A stretch of 64,000 bases of DNA from an uncultured Candidatus Peribacteria bacterium. Lineage in GTDB: Bacteria; Patescibacteriota; Gracilibacteria; Peribacterales; Peribacteraceae. Positions 5,180 through 45,916 of this stretch are shown in pieces. A model generated the notes under the pieces. That model had not been told where the DNA came from and made no database searches. It saw nothing but the letters and a program-made list of their open reading frames with translations. Made by a program: the position numbers and the translations under genes. How positions within the stretch are numbered: position 1 is the stretch's first letter; each line of letters begins with the position of its first letter. Where the stretch lies: contig CAZHQF010000004.1 in assembly GCA_964534205.1 (NCBI GenBank), positions 109,436 to 173,435 of the forward strand, written 5' to 3'.

Positions 5180-6625
5180 ATGTTGAAAGCCACAAAACAA
5201 ATACTTAGGCATACGGTGAAGGTAGGTTTGAATCCTTCTTTTTTGGTATTTTTTCTATGTATAACCATTGCAGTCGGCTGCACATTTTTTCTTCAAAATT
5301 ACACTTCTCAGTTATTAAGAGGACGTCTAAACGAAAGGTTGATTGCGATAGTTTCAACTGCCTCGCTGCAATTTGATGGCAGTGAGATTAGTGAGATCAC
5401 TAGGCTGAAAACAAATGCAGAAAAGACAGATATTTATCGTAAGAATGTTTTAAAGTTACAGGCAATTAGGGCAGCTAATAAAAACATTCGTTATGCCTAC
5501 ATAATTGGTAAAACCCAAGATCCTCTTATTGTGGAATATATCGTTGACGCAGATGCAATGATACTGACGCCAACAATTGATTATACGGGCGATGGTCTCG
5601 TTGATGATGATGACATCAGTATTCCGGGAGAGGAATATGATGCAACAGATGTTCCTGCTATGCAGGGTCCTGCTTTTGAATATTCAACAGTTGATGAAGA
5701 ACTTTCAATCGATGAATGGGGAACGTTTTTGTCTGCGTACGCACCAATTCGGGAAAAAAATGGGGAAGTTGTAGGGGCACTTACAATTGACGTAGAAGTC
5801 AGCGAATTTCAGGCACTCGTTAACACAACATTTGTTCCTTTCTCATTATTCATTGTTGCACTTCTGTTTCTTATCAGCTTCCTCACACTGTTTGTTGTTC
5901 GCATCTGGCAAAGCAGAGTTTCATTGCTTCAAGAGCTTGACCGCCAAAAAGATGAGCTCTTGAGCATTGTCAGCCATCAACTTGCTACACCGATTACTTC
6001 CGTAAAGTGGTACTTGGAAATGCTTGCAAATGGTGACATGGGTGAGCTGAAGAAAGAACAGAAAGACCATGTGAAATCCATGCAAGCGATCGCACTGAAT
6101 CTCGCCGATCTTGTCGGCATGATTCTCGATGTGTCCCGCATTCAGCTCGGTCGCATGAAGATCGATAAGCAGGAACTGAATCTCAATGATTTCTTCAAGG
6201 AAATTCTGAATATTATTGAGCCCAAGGCTATTGAAAAGAATGTGCAGTTTATCAAGAACATGCCTGAGTCCTTGCCTGTGGCTAAGCTAGATAGGCGTTA
6301 CACCCACATGACCATCGAGAACCTCCTCAGCAACGCTATCAAGTACACGCCTGAGGGTGGTGAGGTCATCTTCAATCTGGAGATCCGCAATAACACGATG
6401 TACTGCACAGTAAGGGACACCGGTTGCGGTATCCCCAAGGCTGAACAGGAAAAGATCTTCGGGAAGCTCTTCCGCGCCAGCAACGTCCGTAACAAGGTGG
6501 ACGGCAACGGCTTCGGGCTCTATGTGGCCAAGGGTGCCGTGGAAGCCCAGGGCGGCAAAATCCGCTTTGAGAGCACCGAAGGCAAGGGCACCACGTTCTA
6601 CGTTGAGCTGCCCCTTAATAAGTAA
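5180..6625 (+). CDS. Sensor histidine kinase with extracytoplasmic Cache/PDC-like domain (no response regulator in the window)
   Basis: Two TM segments flank YAYIIGK...EYIVDADA...DEWGTFLSAYAPIREKNGEVVGALTIDVE. H-box LSIVSHQLATPITS, N-box NLLSNAIKYTPEGG, G-boxes DTGCGIP and GNGFGLYVAKG. Confidence 0.9.
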   Translation: MLKATKQILRHTVKVGLNPSFLVFFLCITIAVGCTFFLQNYTSQLLRGRLNERLIAIVSTASLQFDGSEISEITRLKTNAEKTDIYRKNVLKLQAIRAANKNIRYAYIIGKTQDPLIVEYIVDADAMILTPTIDYTGDGLVDDDDISIPGEEYDATDVPAMQGPAFEYSTVDEELSIDEWGTFLSAYAPIREKNGEVVGALTIDVEVSEFQALVNTTFVPFSLFIVALLFLISFLTLFVVRIWQSRVSLLQELDRQKDELLSIVSHQLATPITSVKWYLEMLANGDMGELKKEQKDHVKSMQAIALNLADLVGMILDVSRIQLGRMKIDKQELNLNDFFKEILNIIEPKAIEKNVQFIKNMPESLPVAKLDRRYTHMTIENLLSNAIKYTPEGGEVIFNLEIRNNTMYCTVRDTGCGIPKAEQEKIFGKLFRASNVRNKVDGNGFGLYVAKGAVEAQGGKIRFESTEGKGTTFYVELPLNK

Positions 6626-7364
6626 GAGGCCTTACAGTCATTAACACTTGCTGAAGAATCTTTTCACCTTTTTCGCTAGCCGAAAACCAATATGTCCTTA
6701 TTCGAAAGATAGAATTCCCTGAATGTACGATATACTCTCTGTTATCAAAGAAAGTTGGCATTTCAATTACCGAGCTATCGGTTAAATCGATGCTGCCCAT
6801 ATCAAACAAAATTTCGCATAGCTTTCCGAATTCTTTTCTTGAACGAGCGATCTCTTCTCCAGAACAATAAACTGATTCCACAGGAGGTGATGCTAAACCT
6901 CCAGGAAAATTACATATATTTTGTGCCACAAAAAGCTCAGTCTCATCTGATCTATAAAGGGATTCAATATTTGTATATTTGTATGCAGCATTAATATCTG
7001 ACCAAGTTCTTGAATTAGGAGCATTATAATATATTTGATTGCGAGGATCGCAATTATCGGCATTTAGATAATTTGTAATATCAGTATTTTTTTGCCTAAA
7101 GACATATGCCCCGAATGAAAATTCCCCTTCACCACGAGGACCGGTTTCTTCTCCTGAATTTATGGAAAAAAGCCACCAGCCATTAGGATTTTTTATTACT
7201 TTCATTGATTCAGGAGCAGAAAAAACAATTTTTTCATCCTTAAGAGGAATTTCGCTGAATGGGATTTTCATTCCTGTACCAGTAACTAATTCTGCAGGAG
7301 ACTTCTTAATACCAGATGAGCATCCTAGTAAAATTAGACTGATAAAAAGTAAAAGAGATTTCAT
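6615..7364 (-). CDS. Lipoprotein of unknown function (candidate immunity partner of the upstream CHAP-domain protein)
   Basis: Signal peptide plus lipobox MKSLLLFISLILLGCSSG. Its ATG (7364..7362) overlaps the TGA of the upstream ORF (7363..7361) as ATGA. Low GC. Confidence 0.7.
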   Translation of the reverse strand: MKSLLLFISLILLGCSSGIKKSPAELVTGTGMKIPFSEIPLKDEKIVFSAPESMKVIKNPNGWWLFSINSGEETGPRGEGEFSFGAYVFRQKNTDITNYLNADNCDPRNQIYYNAPNSRTWSDINAAYKYTNIESLYRSDETELFVAQNICNFPGGLASPPVESVYCSGEEIARSRKEFGKLCEILFDMGSIDLTDSSVIEMPTFFDNREYIVHSGNSIFRIRTYWFSASEKGEKILQQVLMTVRPLTY

Positions 7365-10300
7365 TCGTTAATTCGGTAAAGAGTAAAGTTGAGAGTCTGG
7401 TTAAGCTTATTCCAACTAAAGAAATGATAACGCGGTGTTAGGTCATCTGTCTCCGTACCATTTGGTAGTGTTCTGCCTTCGCCAAAATTTGAATCAAAAA
7501 CCCATATTCCCTCTGCTGTAACAGATCCTATAAGGAAAGTGTGCTGATAATTATCGAGTGTATATTGAACCATATCGCCAGTAAGCAATTGCTTGGATTC
7601 TGCGAGTTCACTGAGCACTGTTCCCAGAGTACCCTCATCGCTTTCAGTATGACCAGTTGCTATAGCAATAACATCTGTGTTTGAAACCCACTGATACTGG
7701 GCATTTTCCATATTTTTTCCGATATTAATTCCGACTTCCGGATCTTTTAGAATCAATTGCTGTAACCAATATTTACATTGACCCTCTTGAAAGCTTTCAT
7801 AAGGAGTGCCCACCCATGCGTTCGCCTGAGAATCCCAAATCGCTTTGTGCTCATCGGATGCATTTTGGCCAAGGAAGTGTTCAAGAAGGAACTTGATTGT
7901 CGCTGTTGCTTTTGCGCGATCGGGACTCAGGCCGGTAAATGAAAGTGCTTCGAGCACTCTCTGTTTATCCTGTGCATCCAGCGCATCAAAATCGGCAACA
8001 TACTGTCTGGCGATATCTTCGGTAGCTTGGTCATTTATCGATGCGGTAATAGTGCTCACAGATTGTGGAAACATGACATTCACGAATATTTCTGCCTCAC
8101 GGTTTGTGCCACCACCAAGACCCTCCACATTCTCGCCTGTTGATTGCAAAAGGGCAAGTTTTAGCCTAAAAGCTCCTGCTAAGTTCCCGTTGATGCCAGC
8201 ATAAGCCAGAGACTGCATTGGAATTTTTGCAGTATATCCTCCTTGAAATAGAGGTGTGAGTGCAATGCCTCCCCCTTGATGATTCATGCCAATTTGAAAT
8301 CCAAATTCGCTGAGGAGATAGAATGTTCCACCTGAATACAGATTTGTTGTAGTGCTAAAATTTTGCGGCAAAAGGAGATCAAACTTCACAGGAATCATCG
8401 CATTAGGATCAGTGTGATCAAAAGCACCGAGAATGACTTTAGCAACCTCAGGTTTTTCAGGAGCAATTGACGATGATGCTGTCGAAGGAACAAAAAGATG
8501 ATCAAGTCCGGCTATTGCACAAGTTGTCCAAAAAGTTCTAAAGGAACGCGAAGGATCACTTGTCGTGATAGCAAAATTCGCTTGCAGCAATTCACCTGAC
8601 ACTCCCAATAGTCGCTCAGCAATAGCTATTCGTAGCCGCAATTCCCCAATCGAAGTGTCCGCTGCAGATTGAAATAATCCTGTGAGTATCCTTCCTGCAA
8701 CGGTGTCTGTACGCATTTTTTGTCCTTCAAATTCTAAAGCAGAATTCCTGAACCAGGAGAATGCAATAATCTGCAATTGTGAAAGAGGAAGATTATTCAC
8801 TGCCTCGCGTGCATCAACGAGAGAGATCGTATTTTCACTGGCTTGAGTATCAGTGGCATAACCAACAAGTGAAGATGTAAACCCCAATGTCTGTCTAACT
8901 TGTATCTCTGACGTACCAGTGAATGCCGCCAACTGCCCCCAGGAAAGTTCGCGTCCAACAGACCTTGCATAATTATGGAGCGGTACAATGGCATCAGCGG
9001 GTGCCGCCGCGTGGCTGAGGAGAATCACATTCACTGTATGATTGAACGCCGCATCCGACACCTCATTCGTGTCCGCCGGATCCTCATGTTCACTCACCCT
9101 GTGCGTCCAGTTGAGGATCATCTGGTAATAGGCGGATTCCTCGGCTTTGCGCATCTCCACCGCCGCATTCGCATCTGAGCATCTGCACTCCAGGCACTCC
9201 CGGATCTGCTCTGCGGTGGGGAAGCCCGGATAGGAACACTGGAAGCGGGAGAAATCGAAGATGCCCGGCTCCTCCCCGGCATCGCGTCTCATGAGCCAGG
9301 TGTGGTAATCCGAGGCGGCGTTCAGAAGGCGTTCCGAGGCATCGAAGACCTCGTTCCAGACCTGCTCCTCCTGGAACGCGCCCGGATGCCCACCCAGCGC
9401 ATAGATCTGGGCAAAACGCTGCTGCAGCACCTGGTTCTTTGCGCTTGCGAGCAGCTCATTGGTGAAGGCCAGCAAGCCGACTGCAGACCAGATAGAGGAA
9501 GCGACGTTGCGGGCGATGGAATATTCCCCCACCGTGACAGGCTCGATATGCGGCGCGACGGACATGACGAGCGCGGCACTCTCCGCCTGCGCAACGGCGA
9601 GATCCTCCGCATCAGGAACAACGGCAACATCAATGGATGCATCTAGGAGACGCGGGAAGCTCTCCGGCAGAAGCTGCAGCGTCCGTAAGGCCGGATGCCA
9701 CTGTGCATACAGAGACTCTTCCTCGATACGCTGACCGTCGACGAGGACAGACACGCGATACATGCGGTTGCCATCCATGGTCACCGTGCCATTCATCGTG
9801 CCGTGGAAGGGCACAGAGACCGTGACGAAGGATTGCTCTTCATCACGGGTGACCGTGGCACCGAGTTCGAGGCGCACCCAGCCGCCAGGACCGTTAAGCA
9901 TGATCTCCGGCTGCACTTCCTGACCCTCAAGGACAAAAACTCTCAGGACAAGCTTGTTCCTGTTCACACCGAGAATGGAAACGGTGTTCCGCAGTGGCAC
10001 CTCCGTCTCCTCCCGCGCGAACAGATCCTGCGCTGCGATGAGAGCGTTCTCCAGACGCGTGATCCGATTCGCTGCCCCGTTCATCCTGTTCTGCGCCTGC
10101 TCCACGTCCCAGTCCGTCGCCTGGTTCTGATGACGCCGAACGAGGACCGTGTGTAGTTCCTGCTGAAGGGTGGATAGTGAATTTTCGGCTTCAGTAAGCG
10201 CAAATTCAAGGACAGGAATCGCGTGTGCGGCGGCGAAGCGGTTGCCTTCCGTAAGACCGGAGAGAATCTCCTGAAGCACAGGATTGGATTCCGCTGCCGC

Positions 10301-11737
10301 AAAGGCAGCGGCAATGGCATCACTGGACGGCGGAGCTTCCTCCGGCGGGAGGCCCGGATCGGGGTCGGGCTGGGATGCAGCAGCGATCTCCTCGGGTGTG
10401 GGAGGCAGCGGCTCGGGAAGCGGAGTGGCATTCCGGTACGTCTGGATACCACCCTGGATGGATGCAGACACGATTCCCGGCTGTCCACCGGGGGTGAATG
10501 CACCGACGCTGACACCGATCACCTGCTGGTTGTCCTGCAGGATCTGTGGCGAGCCGAACTCACCATTGCCGAGCCCGGTGAGGACAGAAACGCCTCCCTG
10601 GGTATTGCTCCGCTGCCAGAAGAGCGAGGCGACAAGATCGCGTACGTTGTCCCCGTTGAAATCAACGGCCTTGAGTGTGTAGATATGTTGGCCACCCACG
10701 TTATCGATAGAACCGATGCGCTGCAGCGCGCCACTAGTATTGACGGTGTATGTGACAAGCGTGTGATTCTGCGTGGCGGCAATAACGTACATCTGTCCGT
10801 TTTCCTCATACGCAGTCACTGTGTATCCGAGCGCACCGAGATTCACCGAACCGGCTTGCTGATAGCGACCGTTGCCCGTAGAGAGCAGTGTCATCACCTG
10901 ACCCGTGCGGTGGACGATCACCAGGTCCTCGCGGCCATCATGATTGATATCGATGGCCGCACCGTCGAGCGGGAAATCCCCTACGGGAATCATCTCCTGG
11001 TGGTTGTTTTTGGTTACGGTATAGAGCGCGTCAGCTGATTGATCGACAACAATGGTGTCTGCTCCGCTCTGGCCTGCCGTGCGAGCCAAAAACACACTGC
11101 GGGGGTTACCACCCGCTCCTCCGATGACTTCCGGCTCCTGGAAAGTGCCATCCCCGTTGCCCCGCAGGGTGACGATCTCACCGGAACCGTACATTGCCGT
11201 ATTCACATCGATCTTCCCGTCACCATCCCGATCACCAAATGAAACGGAACGCGCATCGGACCCCGGAAGATCAAAACTCTGATAGGCGGATGGAACGCCT
11301 TGCGACGTGAGGGTCCGGATGTTCACTGTACGGTCGTTACTGATATGTGCGGTCGCGGCCTGACCGTTCTCCAGAATCGTCTGGTCGATCGCCATCGTGT
11401 CCGCGCCACCACCGGTACGGGAACCTGCTTCAAACGTCGGATCCGTAACGGAAGGAGTAATGCGGTCGTCGAGCGATTCCAGGACCATGGACCGCGTTGA
11501 GGTACGCGATTGCTCCACAGCCGGATCAGTGGCGCGACGCAGGAGGATTTCGTACGGCTGTTCCTTCGGAGAGGGGGGGCCGGATCTGTGACGGTCGGGC
11601 GTCATGGGAGGAGGGGGGAAGTTCACCACCAGCAAACTCCCTCCCAAAGACAGCCGGGAGGCCCCGGAAACCATCGAAAAAATGAGTGTTCGACTTTTTG
11701 GCTTACAAAAGAGCTCCTTGGCGTTCTGTGACCCCAC
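7361..11737 (-). CDS. Large FG-GAP/VCBS-repeat protein with C-terminal CHAP-like Cys-His peptidase (putative peptidoglycan hydrolase) domain
   Basis: FG-GAP-type repeats (FGDRDGDGKIDV, IDINHDGREDLV, VDFNGDNVRDLV, GNGDGTFQ, GLGNGEFG), then a Pro-rich linker. The C-terminus has EGQCKYWLQQ ... GDMVQYTLDNYQHTFLIGSVTAEGIWVFDSNFG, matching the CHAP GQC...H...N pattern. The true start is probably internal (for example ATG at 11605, MTPDRH), because the first ~40 codons cross an intergenic repeat. Confidence 0.8.
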   Translation of the reverse strand: MGSQNAKELFCKPKSRTLIFSMVSGASRLSLGGSLLVVNFPPPPMTPDRHRSGPPSPKEQPYEILLRRATDPAVEQSRTSTRSMVLESLDDRITPSVTDPTFEAGSRTGGGADTMAIDQTILENGQAATAHISNDRTVNIRTLTSQGVPSAYQSFDLPGSDARSVSFGDRDGDGKIDVNTAMYGSGEIVTLRGNGDGTFQEPEVIGGAGGNPRSVFLARTAGQSGADTIVVDQSADALYTVTKNNHQEMIPVGDFPLDGAAIDINHDGREDLVIVHRTGQVMTLLSTGNGRYQQAGSVNLGALGYTVTAYEENGQMYVIAATQNHTLVTYTVNTSGALQRIGSIDNVGGQHIYTLKAVDFNGDNVRDLVASLFWQRSNTQGGVSVLTGLGNGEFGSPQILQDNQQVIGVSVGAFTPGGQPGIVSASIQGGIQTYRNATPLPEPLPPTPEEIAAASQPDPDPGLPPEEAPPSSDAIAAAFAAAESNPVLQEILSGLTEGNRFAAAHAIPVLEFALTEAENSLSTLQQELHTVLVRRHQNQATDWDVEQAQNRMNGAANRITRLENALIAAQDLFAREETEVPLRNTVSILGVNRNKLVLRVFVLEGQEVQPEIMLNGPGGWVRLELGATVTRDEEQSFVTVSVPFHGTMNGTVTMDGNRMYRVSVLVDGQRIEEESLYAQWHPALRTLQLLPESFPRLLDASIDVAVVPDAEDLAVAQAESAALVMSVAPHIEPVTVGEYSIARNVASSIWSAVGLLAFTNELLASAKNQVLQQRFAQIYALGGHPGAFQEEQVWNEVFDASERLLNAASDYHTWLMRRDAGEEPGIFDFSRFQCSYPGFPTAEQIRECLECRCSDANAAVEMRKAEESAYYQMILNWTHRVSEHEDPADTNEVSDAAFNHTVNVILLSHAAAPADAIVPLHNYARSVGRELSWGQLAAFTGTSEIQVRQTLGFTSSLVGYATDTQASENTISLVDAREAVNNLPLSQLQIIAFSWFRNSALEFEGQKMRTDTVAGRILTGLFQSAADTSIGELRLRIAIAERLLGVSGELLQANFAITTSDPSRSFRTFWTTCAIAGLDHLFVPSTASSSIAPEKPEVAKVILGAFDHTDPNAMIPVKFDLLLPQNFSTTTNLYSGGTFYLLSEFGFQIGMNHQGGGIALTPLFQGGYTAKIPMQSLAYAGINGNLAGAFRLKLALLQSTGENVEGLGGGTNREAEIFVNVMFPQSVSTITASINDQATEDIARQYVADFDALDAQDKQRVLEALSFTGLSPDRAKATATIKFLLEHFLGQNASDEHKAIWDSQANAWVGTPYESFQEGQCKYWLQQLILKDPEVGINIGKNMENAQYQWVSNTDVIAIATGHTESDEGTLGTVLSELAESKQLLTGDMVQYTLDNYQHTFLIGSVTAEGIWVFDSNFGEGRTLPNGTETDDLTPRYHFFSWNKLNQTLNFTLYRINE

Positions 11738-11743
11738 AGAACG
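11694..11743. repeat. Intergenic repeat: TTTTTGGCTTACA(A/G)AAG(A/G)GCTCC module plus CGTTCTGTG/CACAGAACG hairpin
   Basis: CTTTTTGGCTTACAAAAGAGCTCCTTGG followed by CGTTCTGTGACCCCACAGAACG. Related copies at 2272-2348 and 53423-53494. Module-only copies at 49232-49252, 59172-59190 and 61907-61950. Confidence 0.7.
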
Positions 11744-11758
11744 TACGGAAAGTTCTTT

Positions 11759-12484: not shown

Positions 12485-12534
12485 TGCGGATGCAGACGAG
12501 CCGGGTCAACGGTTCTTTCCGCGGGCGGGAGCGC

Positions 12535-14471: not shown

Positions 14472-14912
14472 TTACTGTGCGTCGGTGGCACCCTCGGCAG
14501 CAGCGGGCTGCTGGATCTGCACGGGGACAACATCCAGGATGCGGTCCTGGGAAGGGCTATAGAGGATAGCGCGGTCGGTGGTGACGATGAGGTGATCGCC
14601 GTTCTGCGCCTTGGTGTAGAACGCGTTGCGCTCGCGCAGCTTCTCCACGTCCACGATGGTGGCGACCGTGGGCTCGATATCGGACGGGATATCGATGTGG
14701 CGGCGGACCTTCTCCACGATGGCCTTGGCCTCCTCCTGGTTCTGCTGCTGGTTCTCATCCGTCACCTGACCCAGGCGGACGGAGAGCTGAGCCAGCTGAT
14801 CCTCGGCGGCGCGGCGGCGCATATCGAGGACGAGGACGAGGACGACGAGTCCGAGGACGACGAGGAATCCGAGCGGCTTGGCGCGGGAAGCCTTGGTGGA
14901 AGTGGTCTCCAT
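14472..14912 (-). CDS. Small N-terminally membrane-anchored protein, unknown function
   Basis: 146 aa with one TM segment (LGFLVVLGLVVLVLVL), a Gln/Glu-rich linker and a small globular C-terminus. High GC3. Lies between the glycosyltransferases and the giant gene. Confidence 0.7.
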   Translation of the reverse strand: METTSTKASRAKPLGFLVVLGLVVLVLVLDMRRRAAEDQLAQLSVRLGQVTDENQQQNQEEAKAIVEKVRRHIDIPSDIEPTVATIVDVEKLRERNAFYTKAQNGDHLIVTTDRAILYSPSQDRILDVVPVQIQQPAAAEGATDAQ

Positions 14913-37783: not shown

Positions 37784-40700
37784 TCAGCTGGTCCTGAGCG
37801 TGGACCGTTGCACCGCTGACAGTCGTGAACTCAAGGAGTGAACCGGTGATGGTGGAGCTGAGACGGAAGCCCGTGCGGTGAGAGTAAGACCCTGACCTGC
37901 GGCATACTGGGTACCTGCGGTGTTGCTGGAACAGACGAGGTTGCCGGAGCTGTCGGTGGTCAGGCGGCCGCAGTTGTTGAAGCCGCCGGAGGTGAGGCGG
38001 AGGCCGGACTGCAGATATGTCTGTCCTTCGACGGAGAGTGAGCCGGATGAGAGCAGCTGGCTGCGGGCGAAGAGCGTGGAGCCCGAGACCGTCGTGAACT
38101 TAAGCAGGGAGCCGCTGATGGTGGAGCTGAGGCGGAAGCCCGTGCCGGTGAGAGTAAGACCCTGGCCGGCGGAGTAGCTCTTGCCGACGCTCGTGGCAGC
38201 GGAGCAGACGAGGTTGCCGGAAGAGTCGGTGGTGAGGACGCCGCAGTTGTTGAAACCCGAAACGATGCGAATACCCGAATTGGCCTGCAGCATGTCGTCG
38301 CCAGCAAAGAAGCCGTCGCCGTAGATGCGCCCGTCGCCATCGACTCCCAGTTCAGTTATGCCGTCGTAGCGAACATCAAGAACATACGTAGCTGGATCAT
38401 CAGCAGCCATATCGAGCACGAGTGCTGTCGTGGCATCCGAATTGTAAATGGTCATCGCAACATCGTTGTCTGAGACAACACTTACCTGACCTTGCAGATA
38501 GGTTTCCCCCTCCACGGACAAGGTTCCACTGGAGGTCAGTCTGCTCTTCGCGGTCACTGTTGAACCGGAAACCGTCTGGAAGCGAACGAGCGAGCCGGTG
38601 ATGGTGGAGTTCAGCTTGAAGCCCGTGCCGGTGAGAGTAAGACCCTGGCCGGCGGAGTAGCTCTTGCCGACGCTCGTGGCAGCGGAGCAGACGAGGTTGC
38701 CGGAAGAGTCGGTGGTGAGGACGCCGCAGTTGTTGAAGCCGCCCGAAGCGAGACGGAGGCCGCCCTGGAGGAAGGTGTTGCCGTCGACGGCGAGGACGCC
38801 GGAGGAGGTCAGACGGTTCGTAGCAGAGACCGTCGCACCGGAGACGGTTGTGAACTCAAGGAGGGAACCCGTGATCGTGGCGTTCAGTCTGAATGACGTA
38901 CCGTTCAAGGTCAGACCCTGAGCGGCGGTATACGTGGTGTTATCGTCGGTGTCACAGACCACGTCTCCATCGGCATCGGTGGAAAGTGCCGTGCAGTTGT
39001 TGAATCCACCGGAGGCGAGCTTGAGGCCGGAAGAGAGAGTCGTGTTGCCGGTGACCGCGACAGTCCCCTGCAGGAAGGAATTGCCTTCCACTGCGAGGAT
39101 GCCGGAGGAGGTCAGACGGTTCGTTGCGGAAACCGTTGCACCGGAGACAGTGGAAAATTCGAGGAGAGAGCCGGTGATGGTGGTGTTCAGCGTGAAGACG
39201 TTGCCCGTGAGTCCAAGACCGCGACCTGCGGCGTACGTGGTGTTGTCATCAGTGCCACAGACCACATCACCATCAGCATCGGTCTCGAGGGTGGAGCAGT
39301 TGTTAAAGCCACCAGAGGAAAGCTTGAGGCCGTTCTGCAGGTAGGTGTTCTGCATGACGGCAAGCGTGCCGGAGACGGAGAGGTTGCCCTTCAGGATAGA
39401 GTTGTTCTCCACGACGAGAGCGCCGGAGGAACGCAGATAGTTGGCAGCGAAGACCTGGGAACCGGAGACGGTCTGGAAACGGACAAGGGAGCCGGTGATC
39501 GTGGCATTGAGACGGAAGCTGGTGCCGTTGAGGGTCAGGCCCTGGGCTGCGGTATAGGTTGTGTTGTCGTCGGTGTCACACGTGATGTTTCCAGAGGAAT
39601 CCGTGGAGAGTGCCGTGCAGGAATTGAATCCGCCGGAAGCGAGACGCAGACCAGACTGCAGAATCGAATTGCCCTCGACGAGGAGCGTGCCGGAGCTGCG
39701 CAACTGATCCTGCGCGTGCACAGTCGCGCCAGAGACCGTGACAAATTCGAGGAGGGAGCCGGTGATCGTCGCGTTGAGACGGAAGCTCGTGCCGTTCAGA
39801 GTCAGGCCCTGTGCAGCGGTGTACGTCGTGTTGTCATCCGTGTCACAGACGATGTCACCGGACGAGTTGGTGGAGAGAGCTGTGCAGGAGTTGAAGCCGC
39901 CGGACGCGAGCCTGAGGCCGCCCTGGAGGAAGGCGTTGCCATCGACGGCGAGAACGCCGGAGGAAGTGAGACGGTTTGCTGCACTGACGAGAGAACCCGA
40001 GACCGTCTGGAAATTCACGACGGAACCGGTGAGGGTTGTGTTGAGAGTGATGACTGTGCCGTTGAGTGTGAGGCCGCGACCGACGGAGTACGTGGTGTTG
40101 TCATCGGTGTCACACGTCACGTTGCCGGAGGAATCCGTGGCAAGAGCGGTGCAACCGTTGAAGCCGCCGGAAGCGAGGCGCAGACCAGAGTTCAGATAGG
40201 CGGTGCCGTCGATGGCCAGAGCGCCGCTGGACTGGAGCGTGTTCTGGGCATGGACGGTAGCGCCGGAGACGAGAGCGAATTCGAGGGTGGAACCGGTGAT
40301 GTTTGCGGAGAGACGGAAGCCGGTGCCCGTGAGGGTGAGGCCCTGCGCAGCGGAGTACTGCGTATTTGTATCTGCATCCGTACCGCACACGAGGTCACCG
40401 TTAGAGTTGGTATCGAGCGTGTTGCAGTTGGTGAGAGCGGTCAGACGTACCGTGCCCTGCAGGAACGCATTGCCGTCGACTGCGAGGACTCCGGAAGACG
40501 TCAGACGATCGGTAGCTGACACTGTTGCACCACTGACCGTAATGAATTCCACAAGCGATCCCGTGATCGTGGCATTCAGCCTGAAGCTCGTACCGTTCAA
40601 GGTCAGACCCTGAGCGGCGGTATACGTGGTGTTATCGTCGGTATCACAGACCACGTCACCATCGGCATCGGTGGAGAGTGCCGTGCAGTTGTTGAAGCCG

Positions 40701-43700
40701 CCGGAGGCAAGCTTGAGGCCGGAAGAGAGAGTCGTGTTGCCGGTGACTGCGACAGTCCCCTGCAGGAACGAGTTCCCTTCAACCGCGAGGACACCAGAGG
40801 AGCTCAGGCGGTTGGCAGCAGCGATCGTGGTACCGGAAACGGTCTGGAACGACACGAGGGAACCGGTGAGAATGCCGTTGAGACGGAAGACGTTGCCATT
40901 GAGCGTGACACCCTGACCGGCGACGTACGTGGTGTCGGAGTCCGAACCGCAAACCAGGTCACCATCAGCATCGGTCTCCAGAGCCGTACAACCGTTAAAG
41001 CCGCCGGAGGCGAGCTTGAGGCCACCCTGAAGGAAAGTATTGCCGTCGACAGCGAGCACTCCGGAGGAAGTCAGACGATTGGTGGCGGAAACCGTTGCGC
41101 CGGAGACAGATGCAAATTCAAGGGTCGAACCTGTGATGTTGAGCGAGAGACTGAAGCCTGTACCCGTGAGGGTGATGCCCTGACCAGCTGCGTACCTTGT
41201 GTTGGTATCGACCACAGCCGTGGAACAGACAAGATCGCCATCGGCGTCCGTCGTAAGCATTCCACAAGCGTTGAATCCGCCGGAGGCGAGCTTGAGGCCA
41301 CCCTGAAGGAAAGTATTGCCGTCGACGGCGAGGACTCCGGAGGAGGTGAGGCGATTTGCAGCGGCCACAGTAGAGCCCGAGACCGTGGTAAAGTTCACGA
41401 GAGAACCCGTGATGGTCGTGTTGAGTGTAATCGTGGTGCCGTTGAGCGTGAGGCCGCGACCGACGTTGTATGTCGTGTCTGCGTCAGTACCGCACGTGAT
41501 GTTTCCGGACGAATCTGTCTCCAGAGACGTGCAGGAGTTAAAGCCGCCAGAAGCGAGGCGCAGGCCCGACTGAAGAATCGAATTACCTTCGACGAGAAGT
41601 GTACCGCTGGAGCGCAGCTGATCCTGTGCGTGGACGGTTGCACCGGAGACGGTGGTGAACTCAAGGAGTGAACCCGTGATCGTGGCGTTCAGTCTGAATG
41701 ACGTACCGTTCAAAGTCAGACCCTGGGCTGCGGTGTATGTGGTGTTATCGTCGGTATCACAGACCACGTCACCATCGGCATCCGTGGAGAGTGCTGTGCA
41801 GTTGTTGAATCCACCGGAGGCGAGCTTGAGGCCGGAAGAGAGAGTCGTGTTGCCGGTGACTGCGACAGTCCCCTGCAGGAACGAGTTCCCTTCAACGGCG
41901 AGAACACCGGAGGAAGTCAGGCGGTTGGCAGCGGCGATTGTGGAGCCGGAGACGGTCTGGAAGTTGAGGAGAGAACCGGTGAGAGTTGTGTTGAGCGTGA
42001 TGACCGTGCCGTTGAGCGTGAGCCCGCGGCCGACGGAATACGTGGTGTTGTCGTCCGTGTCACAGATGACATCACCATCCGCATCCGTTGCGAGCGCTGT
42101 GCAGCCGTTAAAGCCGCCCGAGGCGAGCTTGAGACCGGACTGAAGGACAGAATTGCCTTCCACAAGCAGCGTGCCGCTGGAACGAAGTTCATCCTGTGCA
42201 TGGAACACGCGGCCGGAAGCGGTACCGAGAACTTCGAGCAGCACACCGTTATCCACAACGACCGTGCCGTTGCCGTTACGGATAGCCAACGCGCCGGTCA
42301 TCGTGTCGCCGGAAATATTCACATAGCGGGTATCGGCAGTGCCGATATCGAGGCCGCTTGCGGCTGTCTCATCCACGCCGCAGACAAAGTTGCCGGAAGC
42401 ATCGGTATCGATCGTGTTGCAGTTACGCAGGCTCGAGACGGTGATGGTGGCACCGGAGAGGTTGCCCCGCGTTGTCAGGTTGCCCTTCACGAGACCGGTG
42501 CTCTGGACGACGAGGGTGCCGGAGGAAGCGAGTGACGTTTTGGCGAAGAGTGTGGAACCGGAAATGGTCTCAAATTTGAGGAGCGAGCCCGTGACGGTGG
42601 CATTCAGGCGGAACGTGGTGCCGTTGAGCGAAAGACCCTGACCGGCGGAGTACGTGGTGTTGGTGTCGTCATCCGTACCGCACACCACATCGCCGTCGGC
42701 ATCGGTCTCGAGCGCTGTGCAGCCGTTAAAGCCGCCGCTCGCGAGCTTCAGACCGGAGTTGAGGTACGTGTTGCCATCAACAGCCAGGACTCCGGAGGAG
42801 CTCAAACGGTTCGTGGCAGAGACAGACGCACCGGAGACACTGGCGAACTCAAGTGTGGAACCGGTGATGTTGGTGTTCAGACTGAAACCTGTACCCGTGA
42901 GCGTGAGGCCCTGACCGGCAGCGTATCTCGTGTTTGTGTCGACGACTGCAGAGGAACAGACAAGGTTCCCGGAAGAGTCCGTTGTCAGAGCACCGCAGGA
43001 ATTGAATCCGCCGCTCGCCAATCTCAAACCGGAGTTGAAGTATGCCGTGCCATCGATGGCCAAAGCACCCGAGGACTGCAGAGTATCTTGGGCATGGACG
43101 GTTGCACCGGAAACAGTGGTGAACTCAAGGAGGGAACCGGTGATCGTCGCGTTCAGTCTGAACGACGTGCCGTTCAGGGTCAGGCCTTGTGCTGCGGTGT
43201 ACGTGGTGTTGTCATCGGTGTCGCAGACCACGTCTCCGTCAGAATCAGTGGAGAGAGCCGTGCAGTTGTTGAATCCACCGGAGGCAAGCTTGAGGCCGGA
43301 AGAGAGAGTCGTGTTGCCGGTGACCGCGACAGTTCCCTGCAGGAAGGAGTTCCCTTCAACTGCGAGGACACCAGAGGAGCTCAAACGGTTTGCCGCAGCG
43401 ATCGTGGAACCGGAGATGGTCTGGAAGCTCACGAGCGAACCCGTGAGAATGCCGTTGAGGCGGAAGACATTGCCGTTGAGCGTGACACCCTGGCCTGCGA
43501 CATACGCCGAACCGCCATCCGTGCCGCAGATCAAGTTGCCGTTGCCGTCGGTATCGAGCGTGTCACAGTTTTTGAGAGAGGAGACAGTAAGCGTTGCACC
43601 GGAGAGGTTGCCACGCGTGGTGAGGTTGCCTTTCACGAGGCCGTTGCCCTGAATGACAAGACTTCCAGACGAACGGAGCGAGTTCTGGGCAAACAGTGTC

Positions 43701-45916
43701 GAACCGGAGACTGTCTGGAAACTTGCGAGTGAACCTGTGAGCGTGGTGCTGAGTCTGAACGTCGTGGAGTTGAGCACAATTCCCTGACCGGCCGTATACG
43801 TGGTTCCTTCATCGGTCCCGCACACCAGATCTCCGTTAGAGTTGGTATCGAGCGTGTTGCAATTGGTGAGCGAGGTGATACGGACAGACCCCTGGAGGAA
43901 AGTGGCACCATCAACCGCCAGGACTCCGGAAGAACTGAGACGGTTATTGGCGAAGACCGTGGTTCCGGATACGGAACCGAATTCGAGTGTGGCACCGGTG
44001 ATGTTTGTGTTCAGACTGAAACCCGTGCCCGTGAGGGTGATGCCCTGACCGGCGGCGTAGCGGGTGTTTGTATCAACCGGAGCGGAGGAGCACACCAGGT
44101 CGCCATCGGGGTCGGTAGTCAGCATGCCGCAACCGTTAAAGCCGCCACTCGCGAGCTTCAGGCCGCCCTGCAGGAAGGTGTTGCCTTCCACCGCGAGCGA
44201 GCCGGACGAGCGGAGCACACTGTTCGCAAACAGTGTGGAACCAGAAACCGTCTGGAAGGAGAGGACAGAACCCGTGAGTGTGGAACCCAGGCGGAAGGTG
44301 GTGCCGTTCAGGACGATTCCCTGACCGGCGGTGTACGTGGTGTTGGTATCGGCATCGGTTCCGCAGACCAGGTCTCCGTTGGCGTCGGTATCGAGCGAAT
44401 CACAGTTGGTAAGAGCCGTGAGGCGCACGCCGCTCTGGAAGTACGCGTTCCCCTCTATAGAGAGGATGCCGGAGGAAGTCAGGCGGGTGCCGGCGGTGAC
44501 CGTCCGTCCCGAGAGCGTCTGATACGAGGCGAGCGCACCGGTAATCGTGGAGTTGAGAGAGAAGGTGGAGGTAATGGTGTTGAGCGTCAGACCCTGGCCC
44601 GCCTTATAGGTGGAGCCCACTCCCCCTTCATCCGTGCCGCAGACAAAATTGCCGGAAGCATCGGTATCGATGCTATTGCAGTTCTTGAGTGCGGAAACCG
44701 TGAGCGTTGCGCCGGAGAGGTTGCCGCGTACAACCGCAGAACCGGCCACAAGCAGGTTGCCGCTTGTCGAGAGAAGAGAGGAGGCGTGGATCGTGGAACC
44801 GGAGATCGTGCCGGACACGTTGAGTGCAAGCCCGTCGACGAGGATGTTCAGGAGGCCGGTCATGGTGTCGCCAGTCACGTTCACAAAACGCGCATCGGCC
44901 CCGTTCTGATCGAGGCCGCTCTGCACGAGGGTGGTTTCGGTGGAGCCGCCACCGCCTCCCCCGCCTCCGCGTGACGGACGTTCAGCCACGCCACCGCCGG
45001 ATGGAAGCGGTGCAATACCGCGGCCCGGCTGGTACACACCCGGGAAATCCTTCCATACCGCTTTGCCGTTCTCGATCATGAGAATCTGACCGTTCTTGCC
45101 GCCGTTGGGGAGTTTGAGTGCGGCAATGCGGAGATTGAACTCGTTCTGCGTCTGGGCGGTGGACGTGGCGGACTTGAGCACCGGCCACCCGAACCACGTG
45201 GGCTCGGGGATGAACGGCACGGAAGAAGCGGCCTGCACAAGCCTGCGGGACGAGACGGAGGACGACGAACGGGACGATGCTGCCGACGAACGGGAAGAGG
45301 CGGCAGACGAGACGACGGACGAGCGGGACGAAGACGACGCAGCCACCTGGGCAACAACAATGCGGGAAGACGAACTCTGTGCTGCGGCAACGCGGCCAGC
45401 GGAAGACGAAGACGAGCGGACAGCGACGGTGTTCGTTTGCGTGAACGTGGCAATGAGCGACGACGTGAGGTCCCTGCCGTACGGCAGGAAGAACAGGGCA
45501 ATGAGCACGGCGACACCAGCGAGCACCGGTGTGGTGTGGCGCGGCATCGGAGCGGAGAGCACGGTCGACGCGACCGGGTGCTGCTGCGCATGACGGTAGA
45601 GCGCGATCTGGCGCTCGATGTGCGGGAGCGAGTAGGCAGTGGCCCTGGCGATATACTGGCGTACCGTGCCTTTCTCCTCGCGGGAGAGTGACTCGTAGTG
45701 CAGCTGTGAGAGAACACGGGAAATCCACCGGAGCTTCTCCGCACCCGTCAACGCCGACATGTCCTGCGCCGCCGCCTGGTTGTCCAGGACGGAACGCATG
45801 TGGGCCAGTGTCGGAATGTTGGTGTGCACGTGAGTCTGTGTGTTTGTTGTGTTTCCGCGATTCCGCACCCGCGCGCGAAATCTCATGATTTTAGCGATCT
45901 GCTGCAAAAAGCTCAA
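37784..45916 (-). CDS. N-terminal ~2700 aa of the same giant surface fibre gene (cytoplasmic N-domain, TM anchor, Ser-rich spacer, about 25 repeats of ~90 aa)
   Basis: The track start is TTG at 45916. Alternative ATGs lie at 45886 and 45547 (MPRHTTPVLAGVAVLIALFFLPY). The last ~30 codons (ARASVSAPPSPVHSLSSRLSAVQRSTLRTS) are out-of-frame repeat sequence. Confidence 0.85.
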   Translation of the reverse strand: MSFLQQIAKIMRFRARVRNRGNTTNTQTHVHTNIPTLAHMRSVLDNQAAAQDMSALTGAEKLRWISRVLSQLHYESLSREEKGTVRQYIARATAYSLPHIERQIALYRHAQQHPVASTVLSAPMPRHTTPVLAGVAVLIALFFLPYGRDLTSSLIATFTQTNTVAVRSSSSSAGRVAAAQSSSSRIVVAQVAASSSSRSSVVSSAASSRSSAASSRSSSSVSSRRLVQAASSVPFIPEPTWFGWPVLKSATSTAQTQNEFNLRIAALKLPNGGKNGQILMIENGKAVWKDFPGVYQPGRGIAPLPSGGGVAERPSRGGGGGGGGSTETTLVQSGLDQNGADARFVNVTGDTMTGLLNILVDGLALNVSGTISGSTIHASSLLSTSGNLLVAGSAVVRGNLSGATLTVSALKNCNSIDTDASGNFVCGTDEGGVGSTYKAGQGLTLNTITSTFSLNSTITGALASYQTLSGRTVTAGTRLTSSGILSIEGNAYFQSGVRLTALTNCDSLDTDANGDLVCGTDADTNTTYTAGQGIVLNGTTFRLGSTLTGSVLSFQTVSGSTLFANSVLRSSGSLAVEGNTFLQGGLKLASGGFNGCGMLTTDPDGDLVCSSAPVDTNTRYAAGQGITLTGTGFSLNTNITGATLEFGSVSGTTVFANNRLSSSGVLAVDGATFLQGSVRITSLTNCNTLDTNSNGDLVCGTDEGTTYTAGQGIVLNSTTFRLSTTLTGSLASFQTVSGSTLFAQNSLRSSGSLVIQGNGLVKGNLTTRGNLSGATLTVSSLKNCDTLDTDGNGNLICGTDGGSAYVAGQGVTLNGNVFRLNGILTGSLVSFQTISGSTIAAANRLSSSGVLAVEGNSFLQGTVAVTGNTTLSSGLKLASGGFNNCTALSTDSDGDVVCDTDDNTTYTAAQGLTLNGTSFRLNATITGSLLEFTTVSGATVHAQDTLQSSGALAIDGTAYFNSGLRLASGGFNSCGALTTDSSGNLVCSSAVVDTNTRYAAGQGLTLTGTGFSLNTNITGSTLEFASVSGASVSATNRLSSSGVLAVDGNTYLNSGLKLASGGFNGCTALETDADGDVVCGTDDDTNTTYSAGQGLSLNGTTFRLNATVTGSLLKFETISGSTLFAKTSLASSGTLVVQSTGLVKGNLTTRGNLSGATITVSSLRNCNTIDTDASGNFVCGVDETAASGLDIGTADTRYVNISGDTMTGALAIRNGNGTVVVDNGVLLEVLGTASGRVFHAQDELRSSGTLLVEGNSVLQSGLKLASGGFNGCTALATDADGDVICDTDDNTTYSVGRGLTLNGTVITLNTTLTGSLLNFQTVSGSTIAAANRLTSSGVLAVEGNSFLQGTVAVTGNTTLSSGLKLASGGFNNCTALSTDADGDVVCDTDDNTTYTAAQGLTLNGTSFRLNATITGSLLEFTTVSGATVHAQDQLRSSGTLLVEGNSILQSGLRLASGGFNSCTSLETDSSGNITCGTDADTTYNVGRGLTLNGTTITLNTTITGSLVNFTTVSGSTVAAANRLTSSGVLAVDGNTFLQGGLKLASGGFNACGMLTTDADGDLVCSTAVVDTNTRYAAGQGITLTGTGFSLSLNITGSTLEFASVSGATVSATNRLTSSGVLAVDGNTFLQGGLKLASGGFNGCTALETDADGDLVCGSDSDTTYVAGQGVTLNGNVFRLNGILTGSLVSFQTVSGTTIAAANRLSSSGVLAVEGNSFLQGTVAVTGNTTLSSGLKLASGGFNNCTALSTDADGDVVCDTDDNTTYTAAQGLTLNGTSFRLNATITGSLVEFITVSGATVSATDRLTSSGVLAVDGNAFLQGTVRLTALTNCNTLDTNSNGDLVCGTDADTNTQYSAAQGLTLTGTGFRLSANITGSTLEFALVSGATVHAQNTLQSSGALAIDGTAYLNSGLRLASGGFNGCTALATDSSGNVTCDTDDNTTYSVGRGLTLNGTVITLNTTLTGSVVNFQTVSGSLVSAANRLTSSGVLAVDGNAFLQGGLRLASGGFNSCTALSTNSSGDIVCDTDDNTTYTAAQGLTLNGTSFRLNATITGSLLEFVTVSGATVHAQDQLRSSGTLLVEGNSILQSGLRLASGGFNSCTALSTDSSGNITCDTDDNTTYTAAQGLTLNGTSFRLNATITGSLVRFQTVSGSQVFAANYLRSSGALVVENNSILKGNLSVSGTLAVMQNTYLQNGLKLSSGGFNNCSTLETDADGDVVCGTDDNTTYAAGRGLGLTGNVFTLNTTITGSLLEFSTVSGATVSATNRLTSSGILAVEGNSFLQGTVAVTGNTTLSSGLKLASGGFNNCTALSTDADGDVVCDTDDNTTYTAAQGLTLNGTSFRLNATITGSLLEFTTVSGATVSATNRLTSSGVLAVDGNTFLQGGLRLASGGFNNCGVLTTDSSGNLVCSAATSVGKSYSAGQGLTLTGTGFKLNSTITGSLVRFQTVSGSTVTAKSRLTSSGTLSVEGETYLQGQVSVVSDNDVAMTIYNSDATTALVLDMAADDPATYVLDVRYDGITELGVDGDGRIYGDGFFAGDDMLQANSGIRIVSGFNNCGVLTTDSSGNLVCSAATSVGKSYSAGQGLTLTGTGFRLSSTISGSLLKFTTVSGSTLFARSQLLSSGSLSVEGQTYLQSGLRLTSGGFNNCGRLTTDSSGNLVCSSNTAGTQYAAGQGLTLTARASVSAPPSPVHSLSSRLSAVQRSTLRTS
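37871..37878 (-). other. Frameshift site: 1-nt deletion joining or splitting the 2710-aa and 2998-aa ORFs
   Basis: cgtgcggtgag here versus cgtgccggtgag in sister repeats (for example 38141-38152 and 38621-38632). Restoring the missing C gives ...AGQGLTLTGTGFRLSSTITGSLLEFTTVSGATVHAQDQLRSSGSLIVEGSANIDG, which is continuous with the downstream ORF. Confidence 0.8.

Follow-up and report, generated by a model that had tools for sequence, protein, structure and literature searches.

Giant phage-fibre-like surface proteins with linked glycosylation genes adjoin a putative polymorphic wall-hydrolase/lipoprotein cassette in a Candidatus Peribacteria genome

Domain content, gene order in relatives, and base composition support the conclusion that a 39-kb block of genes for surface proteins in an uncultured, probably cell-attached Candidatus Peribacteria bacterium, a member of the candidate phyla radiation (CPR), probably comprises two neighbouring modules, one for giant fibres and their glycosylation (11.76 to 45.9 kb) and one for a polymorphic effector and its immunity protein (6.6 to 11.6 kb). 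The block lies in a stretch of 64,000 nucleotides, hereafter the window, from contig CAZHQF010000004.1 of assembly GCA_964534205.1 (positions 109,436 to 173,435). The open reading frame (ORF) list bears out an earlier interpretation, made without database searches (the sequence-only reading), that every gene from 6615 to 45916 is on the minus strand: its eight ORFs encode, in 5′-to-3′ order, a fibre split by a frameshift (fibre AB), a second fibre (fibre C), a 146-residue protein (p146), a GT-C glycosyltransferase, a GT2 glycosyltransferase, an FG-GAP repeat protein, and a lipoprotein. Long plus-strand ORFs within these genes are shadow ORFs of DNA with 60% guanine plus cytosine (GC). The sequence-only reading treated the whole block as a single functional unit, a claim that found support for the fibre and glycosylation genes and not for the remaining two. 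We know of no cultured Peribacteria and of no known host for them, and the Peribacteria sequences found here came from metagenome-assembled genomes throughout.

Fibre C is 4,503 residues long and fibre AB 5,717 once a 1-nucleotide frameshift is bridged, in agreement with the frameshifted gene of about 5,700 codons described earlier. A repeat unit that reads GQGLTLTA and continues as TGFRLSSTITGSLLEFTTVSG (starting TGFRLSS) passes from the frame of ORF A into that of ORF B, consistent with the loss of one base in fibre AB, either through mutation or through an assembly error. A slippery heptamer was sought at the site and was absent, and programmed frameshifting was accordingly judged unlikely. 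Both fibres have a single N-terminal transmembrane (TM) helix (residues 126 to 150 in fibre AB), followed by Ser/Pro/Gly-rich linkers, Cys-pair repeats, tail-fibre motifs (SRYVNVSGDTMTG and TYDLGNxSNRWxxLY), and distal globular domains. A segment containing GADYAEWF comes next, and then a coiled coil, a β-helix, an Ig-like domain, a small Cys domain, and an acidic Pro/Glu/Thr-rich tail. The Cys-pair pattern matched 28 times in fused fibre AB, 25 of these in ORF A, and 18 times in fibre C. LVIVD repeats, which the sequence-only reading mentions, lie in fibre C (Pfam E = 5.9e-33, 112 bits, six repeats), and we regard the propeller that they are predicted to form as a candidate distal binding domain. 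Fibre AB has three mutually similar carbohydrate-binding module (CBM)/jelly-roll-like modules, recognised by eye, with a weak Pfam match to CBM_35_2 in ORF B (E = 9.5e-7); Pfam also gave a weak End_tail_spike match in fibre C.

A further link to phage fibres came from the C-terminal module. Fibre C matched Peptidase_G2 (PF11962), a type of intramolecular chaperone (IMC) domain, at E = 2.4e-5 and 24.3 bits against a cut-off of 25; the family was matched in 5 of 17 fibre family members (best E = 2.1e-7), and precomputed PF11962 annotation is present on many fibre homologues. D3854 and E3857, presumably the catalytic residues, are invariant across the 17 aligned sequences, and the corresponding ADYAEWF motif of fibre AB lies at 30681 to 30704. 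We modelled the last 604 structured residues with AlphaFold2 (AF2) from 48 sequences and obtained a mean predicted local distance difference test (pLDDT) score of 79, with values over the IMC segment mostly between 85 and 97 and dips to about 71 to 78. The best Foldseek match in the PDB was 3gqh_A, the C-terminal fragment of phage phi29 gp12 (E = 1.3e-4, probability 1.0, TM-score on the target 0.53), and further matches were phage decoration proteins, the phi29 head-fibre base, H-type lectins, and the R2 pyocin fibre. In BFVD, 86 matches at E ≤ 0.001 included "preneck appendage protein" (E ~1e-9), "Peptidase G2 IMC," and tail proteins, while 328 viral loci matched in IMG/VR, the listed best loci covering essentially the first ~110 residues around ADYAEWF. 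A tblastn search of GenBank phages with the autochaperone segment found no match. A Bactofilin-type β-helix match was present in 5 of the 17 family members. With the motifs, the TM helices, and the predicted autochaperone in hand, the description of these proteins as giant, membrane-anchored, and tail-fibre-like is supported; the region beyond the autochaperone is, judging by its sequence, specific to these CPR bacteria.

The two fibres are paralogues, with 43% identity over the first 1,500 residues, 64% over a central stretch, and 56% over the last 650. At the nucleotide level their aligned regions are 64 to 74% identical, apart from one nearly identical tract (Table 1), a sign that the two genes have recently exchanged modules or undergone gene conversion. 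Within fibre C, a repeat of 312 nucleotides with 98% identity occurs at 22933 to 23243 and 24558 to 24869. Gene conversion or shuffling of modules could lie behind this repeat too, or assembly may have collapsed at such near-identical tracts.

A scan of species-representative genomes revealed 445 loci with the fibre C-terminal module, at identities of up to 57%. The best 80 are nearly all labelled Candidatus Peribacteria, Peribacteraceae, or Peregrinibacteria, and the remainder of those 80 are labelled Patescibacteria, Gracilibacteria, or unclassified bacterium. Complete fibre ORFs in other genomes range from 891 to 3,919 residues (median ~2,000), and many fibres exceed 4,000 residues. Seven loci (L022, L026, L044, L071, L072, L075, and L080) have FG-GAP propeller segments in frame within the fibre, upstream of the C-terminal module and 25 to 31% identical to the N-terminal domain of the window's FG-GAP protein; five of the seven have several copies, the last one 0.1 to 0.5 kb upstream of the module.

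At the opposite end of fibre AB, a region of ~115 residues (residues ~11 to 125, 45530 to 45886) precedes the TM helix and would be cytoplasmic. It is kept in frame in the L010 fibre (4811 to 5200), where it has a weak HTH_28 match (E = 0.004), and in L007 a separate HTH_28/HTH_32 gene (9228 to 10007) overlaps the fibre start. At its N-terminus, giant fibre AB may possess a DNA-binding domain that is tethered to the membrane.

We compared the window proteins by tblastn with 78 nonredundant fibre loci and counted those with sufficient downstream sequence. Among 71 such loci, 38 had a p146 homologue 3′ of the fibre. A GT2 gene (at least 40% identity) followed in 17 of 54, a GT-C gene in 14, and both in 13, and p146 was present at all 17 GT2-bearing loci. 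The GT2 and GT-C genes came directly after fibre and p146 even where the fibres were only 40 to 57% identical. Fibre, p146, GT2, and GT-C are a recurrent module across Peribacteria.

The p146 protein has one hydrophobic helix (residues 8 to 36), as expected of the anchored protein proposed earlier, and a conserved domain with the pattern EPTVATIVDVE..NPFY.KAENGD.LIVT..RAILY..ILDVVPVQ. Its family has 40 homologues; Pfam, the PDB, and PHROGs gave no match, and NCBIfam gave chance-level, subthreshold matches only. From its linkage, we consider p146 a fibre-linked accessory protein. Both enzyme assignments of the sequence-only reading were confirmed. GT-C matched PMT_2 (PF13231) at 43 bits (cut-off 26.1), has at least 10 hydrophobic segments, and gave weak NCBIfam matches to ArnT and Agl23. 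GT2 matched Glycos_transf_2 (PF00535) at 117.6 bits and the PHROG "GtrB-like O-antigen conversion" at E = 3.9e-23. In NCBIfam its matches were ArnC (E = 3.4e-20), PgfS (8.3e-17), and dolichol-phosphate hexose transferase (7e-12), with PgaC/IcaA marginally better than these (E = 1.6e-20) and every score far under the equivalog cut-offs. No hydrophobic segment was found in the 241 residues of GT2, which therefore lacks the C-terminal TM helices of GtrB and ArnC.

The fibres carry long Ser-rich and Pro/Glu/Thr-rich segments of the kind typical of O-glycosylated linkers. In Streptococcus mutans, genes for PgfS and PgfM1/M2 adjoin the adhesin gene cnm. Because of these segments and that precedent, the fibres are a plausible acceptor for the sugar handled by GT2 and GT-C. 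Another possibility, to which we give less weight and which is the best placed of the alternatives, is that the two enzymes, with p146, decorate a wall or membrane glycopolymer or other proteins, the fibre being adjacent merely as part of a general surface neighbourhood. Pairs of the GtrB/ArnC/CsbB type usually modify lipopolysaccharide, lipid A, or teichoic acids. The low frequency of the pair at fibre loci, 13 of 54, would suit such a role, as would the ~8 dolichol-phosphate-mannose-synthase-like genes of the Peribacteria genomes in PMC4736985. The recurrence of the pair immediately after fibre and p146 at loci with such divergent fibres, the linker-like segments, and the PgfS match of GT2, with its cnm-linked precedent, argue instead for the fibres.

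The second module begins with the 1,458-residue FG-GAP protein, a putative effector. Its ORF most likely starts at M45 (nucleotide 11605), because the extension upstream is out of frame in L003, its closest relative; the same observation ruled out the 44-residue extension as a signal peptide. The FG-GAP repeats recognised earlier were confirmed by Pfam (Table 1). The closest homologue, P0002 in L003, is 64% identical over query residues 45 to 1091, is unrelated beyond that point, and ends in a Peptidase_M23 domain (39.6 bits). In L009 and L010, proteins in the same position after GT2 have two NPCBM domains in place of FG-GAP; the L009 protein has the central region in common with the window effector (29%), and the L010 protein has the C-terminal domain in common (26 to 40%). 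A metagenome scan found the C-terminal domain type of the window twice more, in L089 and L090, and the bodies of the L010 and L090 proteins differ from that of the window while their C-terminal type is the same. Where the variable region starts, GC content drops from ~0.60 to between 0.33 and 0.45 in the window, L003, L010, and L090. A homologue search with the variable C-terminus (7364 to 8932) returned nothing, not even the identical protein P0001 that a full-length query had recovered, which we take as a limitation of the tool, and the effector had no NCBIfam or PHROG match.

A motif, LESLDDRITPS, occurs at 11450 to 11482 (effector residues 86 to 96), ~40 residues from the true N-terminus. 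L003, L009, and L010 retain the motif (general form LExLxxRIxP), L090 has a looser version of it, and among 118 unrelated FG-GAP proteins 8 have a similar N-terminal sequence, LExLExRxLLS. The motif could act in export, as a signal of an uncharacterised kind.

The C-terminal domain had been called a CHAP hydrolase in the sequence-only reading. A conserved papain-like Cys/His motif agrees with that name, whereas the window protein has no Pfam CHAP (PF05257) match and reached Amidase_6, which we take to belong to the same papain-like clan, only below threshold (E = 0.007, 16.9 bits, cut-off 23.2). Candidate catalytic residues are C1321 (7775 to 7777, in GQCKYW), H1399 (7541 to 7543, in QHT), and D1415/N1417 (in VFDSN). 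The motifs GxCKYW, (Q/G)HT, and G(I/V)WVFDSN are found in the window and L010 proteins, which were aligned, and in L089 and L090, where they were read in the translations; the Cys, His, and polar residues follow in papain-like order and spacing, and the domains are 35 to 40% identical to that of the window. The L090 homologue gave a weak CHAP match (E = 0.0029, 18.5 bits, below the cut-off of 26), and the L010 homologue gave none. In a low-confidence single-sequence AF2 model (pLDDT 56), the Cys lies at a helix N-terminus and the His and Asp lie on adjacent strands, a topology compatible with a papain-like fold. We found no relative of the domain in GenBank phages (tblastn) or in the IMG/VR scan.

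The downstream gene encodes a lipoprotein, as proposed earlier, with signal sequence MKSLLLFISLILLG-C15 and a lipobox of the form [LVI][ASTVI][GAS]C. Its start overlaps the effector stop by 4 nucleotides. Among 1.84 billion representatives the search turned up only 7 homologues; of the 6 that were fetched, 5 have a lipobox, and NCBIfam and PHROGs gave no match. Each of the four genes with a CHAP-like end (window, L010, L089, and L090) has a lipoprotein gene that overlaps or abuts its 3′ end, and these lipoproteins belong to at least three sequence families. In L003, the M23-type gene is followed by an array (5732 to 9423) of six intact lipoprotein genes and one split copy (7337 to 7826), each overlapping or abutting the next, of at least three families and with a GC content of ~0.33 to 0.44 against flanks of ~0.6. 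Two of these lipoproteins are 36 to 39% identical (E ~1e-40) to the L010 lipoprotein, though the L003 toxin is of M23 type, and so appear to be orphan copies. Because the C-terminal swap, the downstream lipoproteins, the arrays, and the GC drop occur together, the cassette follows the logic of polymorphic toxins: effector and lipoprotein look like a polymorphic effector/immunity pair, and by its position the lipoprotein fits an immunity protein better than a coeffector.

Table 1. Features of the fibre/glycosylation and effector/immunity genes. Positions are those of the window unless a locus is named; aa, amino acids; nt, nucleotides.
Feature	Position	Strand	Length	Remarks
Lipoprotein	6615–7364	−	249 aa	Putative cognate immunity protein; lipobox LLG-C15
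FG-GAP protein (putative effector), ORF	7361–11737	−	1458 aa	
Modular effector from M45	7361–11605	−	1,414 aa	
Papain-like (CHAP/NlpC-clan) putative peptidoglycan hydrolase domain	7364–7855	−		Conserved Cys/His motif
Effector, variable low-GC C-terminal region	7364–8932	−		
Effector, conserved central region	8933–10399	−		
Effector, FG-GAP propeller	10418–11440	−		FG-GAP_3 (Pfam), 55.7 bits
Conserved intergenic element	11695–11742	−		Palindrome GTTCTGTG-GGGT-CACAGAAC, then GAGCTCT, then AAGCCAAAAA
GT2	11759–12484	−	241 aa	GtrB/ArnC/PgfS-like; putative polyprenyl-phosphate sugar synthase
GT-C	12535–14331	−	598 aa	PMT_2/ArnT-like; multi-spanning; non-hydrophobic N-terminal stretch ~32–140
p146	14472–14912	−	146 aa	Single-pass membrane protein; conserved ~65-aa domain
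Fibre C	15063–28574	−	4503 aa	TM anchor at 28467–28514
Fibre C, acidic Pro/Glu/Thr tail	15066–15374	−		
Conserved C-terminal region of Peribacteria fibres	15375–16604	−		Coiled coil, β-helix, Ig-like domain, small Cys domain
Fibre C, Peptidase_G2-type IMC domain	16605–17072	−		GADYAEWF; D3854/E3857
Fibre C, LVIVD β-propeller	17340–18227	−		Residues ~3450–3745; ~90 residues upstream of autochaperone
Near-identical tract, fibre C versus fibre AB	20586–21635 versus 34719–35768	−	1,050 nt	98.7% (blastn)
Fibre AB, 3′ part (ORF B)	28767–37763	−	2998 aa	DLGNxxNRW repeats, CBM/jelly-roll-like modules, autochaperone, conserved C-terminal region, acidic Pro/Glu/Thr tail
Frameshift joining ORF A to ORF B	~37870–37880	−	1 nt	Repeat unit continues across frames
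Fibre AB, 5′ part (ORF A)	37784–45916	−	2710 aa	Cytoplasmic N-terminal ~120 aa, TM anchor, Ser-rich stretch, 90–100-aa Cys-pair repeats
Element copy before rpiB	~49252	−		Without palindrome
Element copy before dprA	53425–53471	−		
Element copy, L003	1242–1290			
Element copies, L009	~8664–8724 and ~9594–9654			
Element copy, L010	~15398–15458			

The window and its three closest relatives found, L003, L009, and L010, share an arrangement in which GT-C, GT2, and the large effector adjoin one another, and the effector stood beside GT2 in only 2 of the 54 surveyed fibre loci (L009 and L010) plus L003. The absence of glycosyltransferase genes upstream of the L003 toxin was considered and ruled out: database gene calls in L003 1 to 1225, two of them minus-strand, are on the wrong strand, and tblastn showed GT-C (62%) and GT2 (87%) on the toxin strand. 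Shadow ORFs in DNA of 60% GC can mislead synteny checks, as in this case.

A conserved element occupies the gap between GT2 and the effector, 17 nucleotides past the GT2 stop and with its 3′ end ~90 nucleotides before the toxin ATG. Its consensus across copies is a GTTC-N12-GAAC palindrome, GAGCYCT, and AAGCCRAAAA. The element is upstream of the effector gene in all four genomes (window, L003, L009, and L010), in L009 also before an inserted small gene, and none of the other 80 Peribacteria loci has it. Further copies precede dprA and rpiB in the window. The palindrome recurs after pilT (2273 to 2292), there followed by a T-run as in an intrinsic terminator, and two pairs of the element hairpin show compensatory changes. 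A scan for consensus promoters and terminators gave counts equal to those of shuffled sequences. We infer that the element marks a transcription boundary, as a terminator and/or a promoter-operator.

We conclude from these patterns that the fibre/glycosylation genes and the effector/lipoprotein genes form separate modules whose adjacency is clade-specific; a functional connection between them is possible. A fuller form of the claim in the sequence-only reading, in which all 39 kb make up one apparatus, with glycosylated fibres that grip a partner cell and the FG-GAP hydrolase as their dedicated payload, we consider unlikely. It draws on the common strand of all eight ORFs, the order of GT-C, GT2, and a large hydrolase-type protein kept in four genomes, the effector-like propellers within the fibres of seven other Peribacteria loci, and the CPR host. 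It is difficult to reconcile with an effector found at 2 of 54 fibre loci when 13 to 17 have the glycosyltransferase genes, with a promoter-like palindromic element that stands between GT2 and the effector and occurs before dprA and rpiB as well, and with N- and C-terminal effector domains that are swapped among relatives while the fibres and glycosyltransferases stay. With its own conserved upstream element, the effector/lipoprotein pair behaves as an exchangeable cassette.

Several points weigh against the two-module interpretation or parts of it. Throughout the closest clade, in all four genomes, the toxin keeps its place beside the glycosyltransferase genes, and the modules may therefore be functionally coupled. 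The two glycosyltransferase genes come after no more than about a quarter of the fibre genes, and their products could act on a different acceptor. Neither a signal peptide, a TM helix or other hydrophobic segment, nor a Pfam or NCBIfam trafficking domain was detected in the effector, and its export is assumed. Membership of the hydrolase domain in the CHAP/NlpC group falls under every curated Pfam threshold, a PDB profile search with the domain gave no match, and Foldseek, which had placed the fibre module with phi29 gp12, gave none at E ≤ 0.001 for the poor hydrolase model (pLDDT 56). Orphan lipoprotein genes were found, but orphan toxin cassettes were not. The low-GC tract reaches past the cassette into kinase, SET-domain, and EamA-like genes, and the GC break is thus not specific for horizontal exchange. 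Every functional step is predicted here from sequence.

A working model can nonetheless be put forward for the two modules. The paralogous fibres would be held in the membrane by their N-terminal helices, with stalks of Cys-pair repeats and phage-tail-fibre motifs and with binding domains placed distally, the LVIVD propeller in fibre C and the CBM/jelly-roll-like modules in fibre AB. By analogy with phi29 gp12, the chaperone would drive folding of the fibre trimer and might then cleave itself off, exposing the propeller or CBM domains as the tip. GT2 would load a sugar onto polyprenyl phosphate in the cytoplasm, and GT-C would pass it on beyond the membrane, where the Ser/Thr/Pro-rich parts of the fibres are a plausible acceptor. 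In the effector, the FG-GAP propeller would bind the target, and the conserved core would carry an exchangeable C-terminal peptidoglycan hydrolase, while the translationally coupled lipoprotein, on the outer face of the cell membrane, would shield the wall of the producing cell itself.

A more ambitious proposal, which we judge quite unlikely, is that the fibres are a phage-derived host-recognition organ that acts with the neighbouring effector in a new contact-dependent attack system of CPR bacteria. Fibre tips (LVIVD, FG-GAP, and CBM) may then bind the partner, the HTH-like N-terminus may relay contact to transcription, and the polymorphic hydrolase with its fibre-type propeller may open the partner's wall. 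Such a system might even belong to a dprA-linked programme of DNA or nutrient acquisition, a suggestion made because the effector, dprA, and rpiB have a common upstream element.

It is highly doubtful that the FG-GAP protein is simply an autolysin that remodels the cell's own wall, with the lipoprotein as its regulator or activator. In favour of this, cell division commonly employs papain-like and M23 hydrolases that have lipoprotein partners. A housekeeping enzyme, however, would not exchange a CHAP-like for an M23 end between homologues that are 64% identical, nor would one expect arrays of six or seven diverse lipoprotein genes that include orphans of another variant's partner. The lectin-like targeting domains are themselves exchanged (FG-GAP versus NPCBM), and a lipoprotein family with so few relatives is equally out of keeping with such a role.

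Least credible of all is a degraded prophage of which the chromosome has kept the tail fibres, a serotype-conversion pair of Gtr type, and a lysis cassette (endolysin and a spanin-like or exclusion lipoprotein): for all the phage-type autochaperone, the GtrB-like PHROG match of GT2, and an order of wall hydrolase then lipoprotein that recalls an endolysin/spanin pair, it was rejected, as phage structural, packaging, and integration genes (capsid, portal, terminase, tail tube, and integrase) were found neither in the flanks nor by PHROGs, where the fibres had weak matches to families without an assigned function and the effector, lipoprotein, p146, and GT-C had none, and as the fibres are TM anchored and 4.5 to 5.7 thousand residues long, the family occupies 445 chromosomal loci in Peribacteria genomes, the locus adjoins purC here and in L010 with a similar neighbourhood in L007, and the C-terminal hydrolase domain has no viral relative in the databases searched.

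The genomic setting of the two modules is that of a chromosomal locus rather than a mobile element. The flanks of the window contain purC, DUF192, rpe, dprA, a kinase gene, and pilT. The fibre genes adjoin purC in the window and also in L010, there in divergent orientation, and L007, a 64-kb ENA contig, has a similar purC/DUF192/rpe/dprA neighbourhood with a short fibre of 879 residues ~5 kb away. GC content is 0.31 to 0.46 from 3800 to 9000 and ~0.60 elsewhere in the window. This tract covers the effector C-terminal region, the lipoprotein, a sensor kinase gene (5180 to 6625), a SET-domain gene (4587 to 5111), and an EamA-like gene (4096 to 4542), and the last three also flank the variable region of L003. 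A chimeric contig was ruled out as the source of the GC break because the identical junction recurs in two independent Logan assemblies; the window proteins occur in an NCBI contig of 205,908 bp and in Logan assemblies of at least two runs, SRR12404957 and SRR16481182. An Rfam scan of the window found tRNA only. Between dprA/tRNA-Thr and a gene for a TPR protein lies a minus-strand ORF of 1,514 codons (53645 to 58189), for which we found no Pfam or PHROG match and no hydrophobic segment.

Together, these results offer concrete candidates for how Peribacteria touch and damage other cells. They identify a very abundant tail-fibre-like surface family with exchangeable tip domains, a recurrent fibre-linked glycosylation set that includes the uncharacterised p146, and a wall-hydrolase effector family with putative lipoprotein immunity, in which both ends and targeting domains are exchanged between close relatives. 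They also suggest that CPR bacteria have taken over an autochaperone-type fibre architecture known from phages for structures on their own cell surface. The fibre tips could act as baits for finding hosts. The episymbiotic or predatory lifestyle proposed in the sequence-only reading is in keeping with the placement of the host in the CPR class Peribacteria, for which a symbiotic lifestyle has been proposed (PMC4736985).

The sequence-only reading knew of no described system with this composition, which was too strong, as each part has close analogues in polymorphic toxins, in Gtr/Pgf/PMT glycosylation, and in phage autochaperone fibres. Tae/Tai proteins are amidase effector/immunity pairs of the type VI secretion system, and, as in these and in polymorphic toxins, the predicted target here is peptidoglycan and the immunity protein would be extracytoplasmic. 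Polymorphic toxins (PMC3482391) further resemble the cassette in their conserved N-terminal and central body with exchangeable C-terminal toxin ends, among them Tox-NlpC/P60, in a small downstream gene that covaries with the toxin end, in arrays of orphan immunity-type genes, in atypical GC content, and in lectin-like adhesion domains. The cassette differs in that no RHS, filamentous haemagglutinin, WXG, PAAR, or Sec signal was recognised, orphan toxin cassettes were not seen, the N-terminal targeting domain is exchanged as well, and the host is a CPR bacterium. Its immunity candidates are lipoproteins, and Zhang et al. (2012; PMC3482391) found lipoprotein immunity for only one family.

The fibres resemble phi29 gp12 (MEROPS G2; 3gqh) in a C-terminal autochaperone with a D-x-x-E motif (DYAE) that follows the receptor-binding part. 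They differ from it in being chromosomal, membrane-anchored, cellular proteins of 4.5 to 5.7 thousand residues, with ~450 further conserved residues past the chaperone and with no virion genes present. Two-enzyme extracytoplasmic glycosylation is exemplified by GtrB plus GtrC of phages and Shigella, ArnC plus ArnT, and actinobacterial Ppm1 plus Pmt. The arrangement here is that of the GtrB/ArnC/PgfS systems in that a GT2 and a PMT/ArnT-type GT-C stand beside the gene for a long Ser/Thr-rich surface protein; the GT2 is, however, short and without TM helices, a GtrA-type flippase is not present, and a novel 146-residue protein belongs to the conserved set.

Giant surface proteins have been noted in related settings. 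PMC4736985 (Anantharaman et al., 2016) describes large, strain-variable extracellular proteins, FG-GAP proteins, and many dolichol-phosphate-mannose-synthase-like glycosyltransferase genes in Peribacteria; PMC11573180 places Peregrinibacteria among the phyla most enriched in proteins of >5,000 residues, which are uncharacterised; PMC6031116 reports a polymorphic Rhs-type toxin with a neighbouring immunity gene in a Saccharibacterium; and giant genes of Omnitrophota are implicated in prey adhesion and wall degradation (bioRxiv 10.1101/2023.11.21.568195). The Saccharibacterium report aside, small and probably host-dependent cells with very large, strain-variable surface proteins are common to these accounts and to the present case. 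The Omnitrophota proteins exceed 30,000 residues, and the fibres here are far smaller. The former are reportedly multi-TM proteins, according to the abstract of that preprint. The passages and abstracts consulted in the four sources contain no description of the autochaperone-fibre architecture, the fibre-p146-GT2-GT-C set, or the effector family.

Fratricide in Streptococcus pneumoniae relies on CbpD, a secreted CHAP-type murein hydrolase, and ComM, a self-protection protein. The effector and lipoprotein likewise would pair a CHAP-type hydrolase bearing targeting domains with a self-protection protein, whereas ComM is polytopic and not a lipoprotein, and CbpD is not polymorphic. A connection to competence through the element common to the effector and dprA is only a lead because the element also precedes rpiB. 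In each of these comparisons, the module concerned is a variation on a known type of system rather than a new category.

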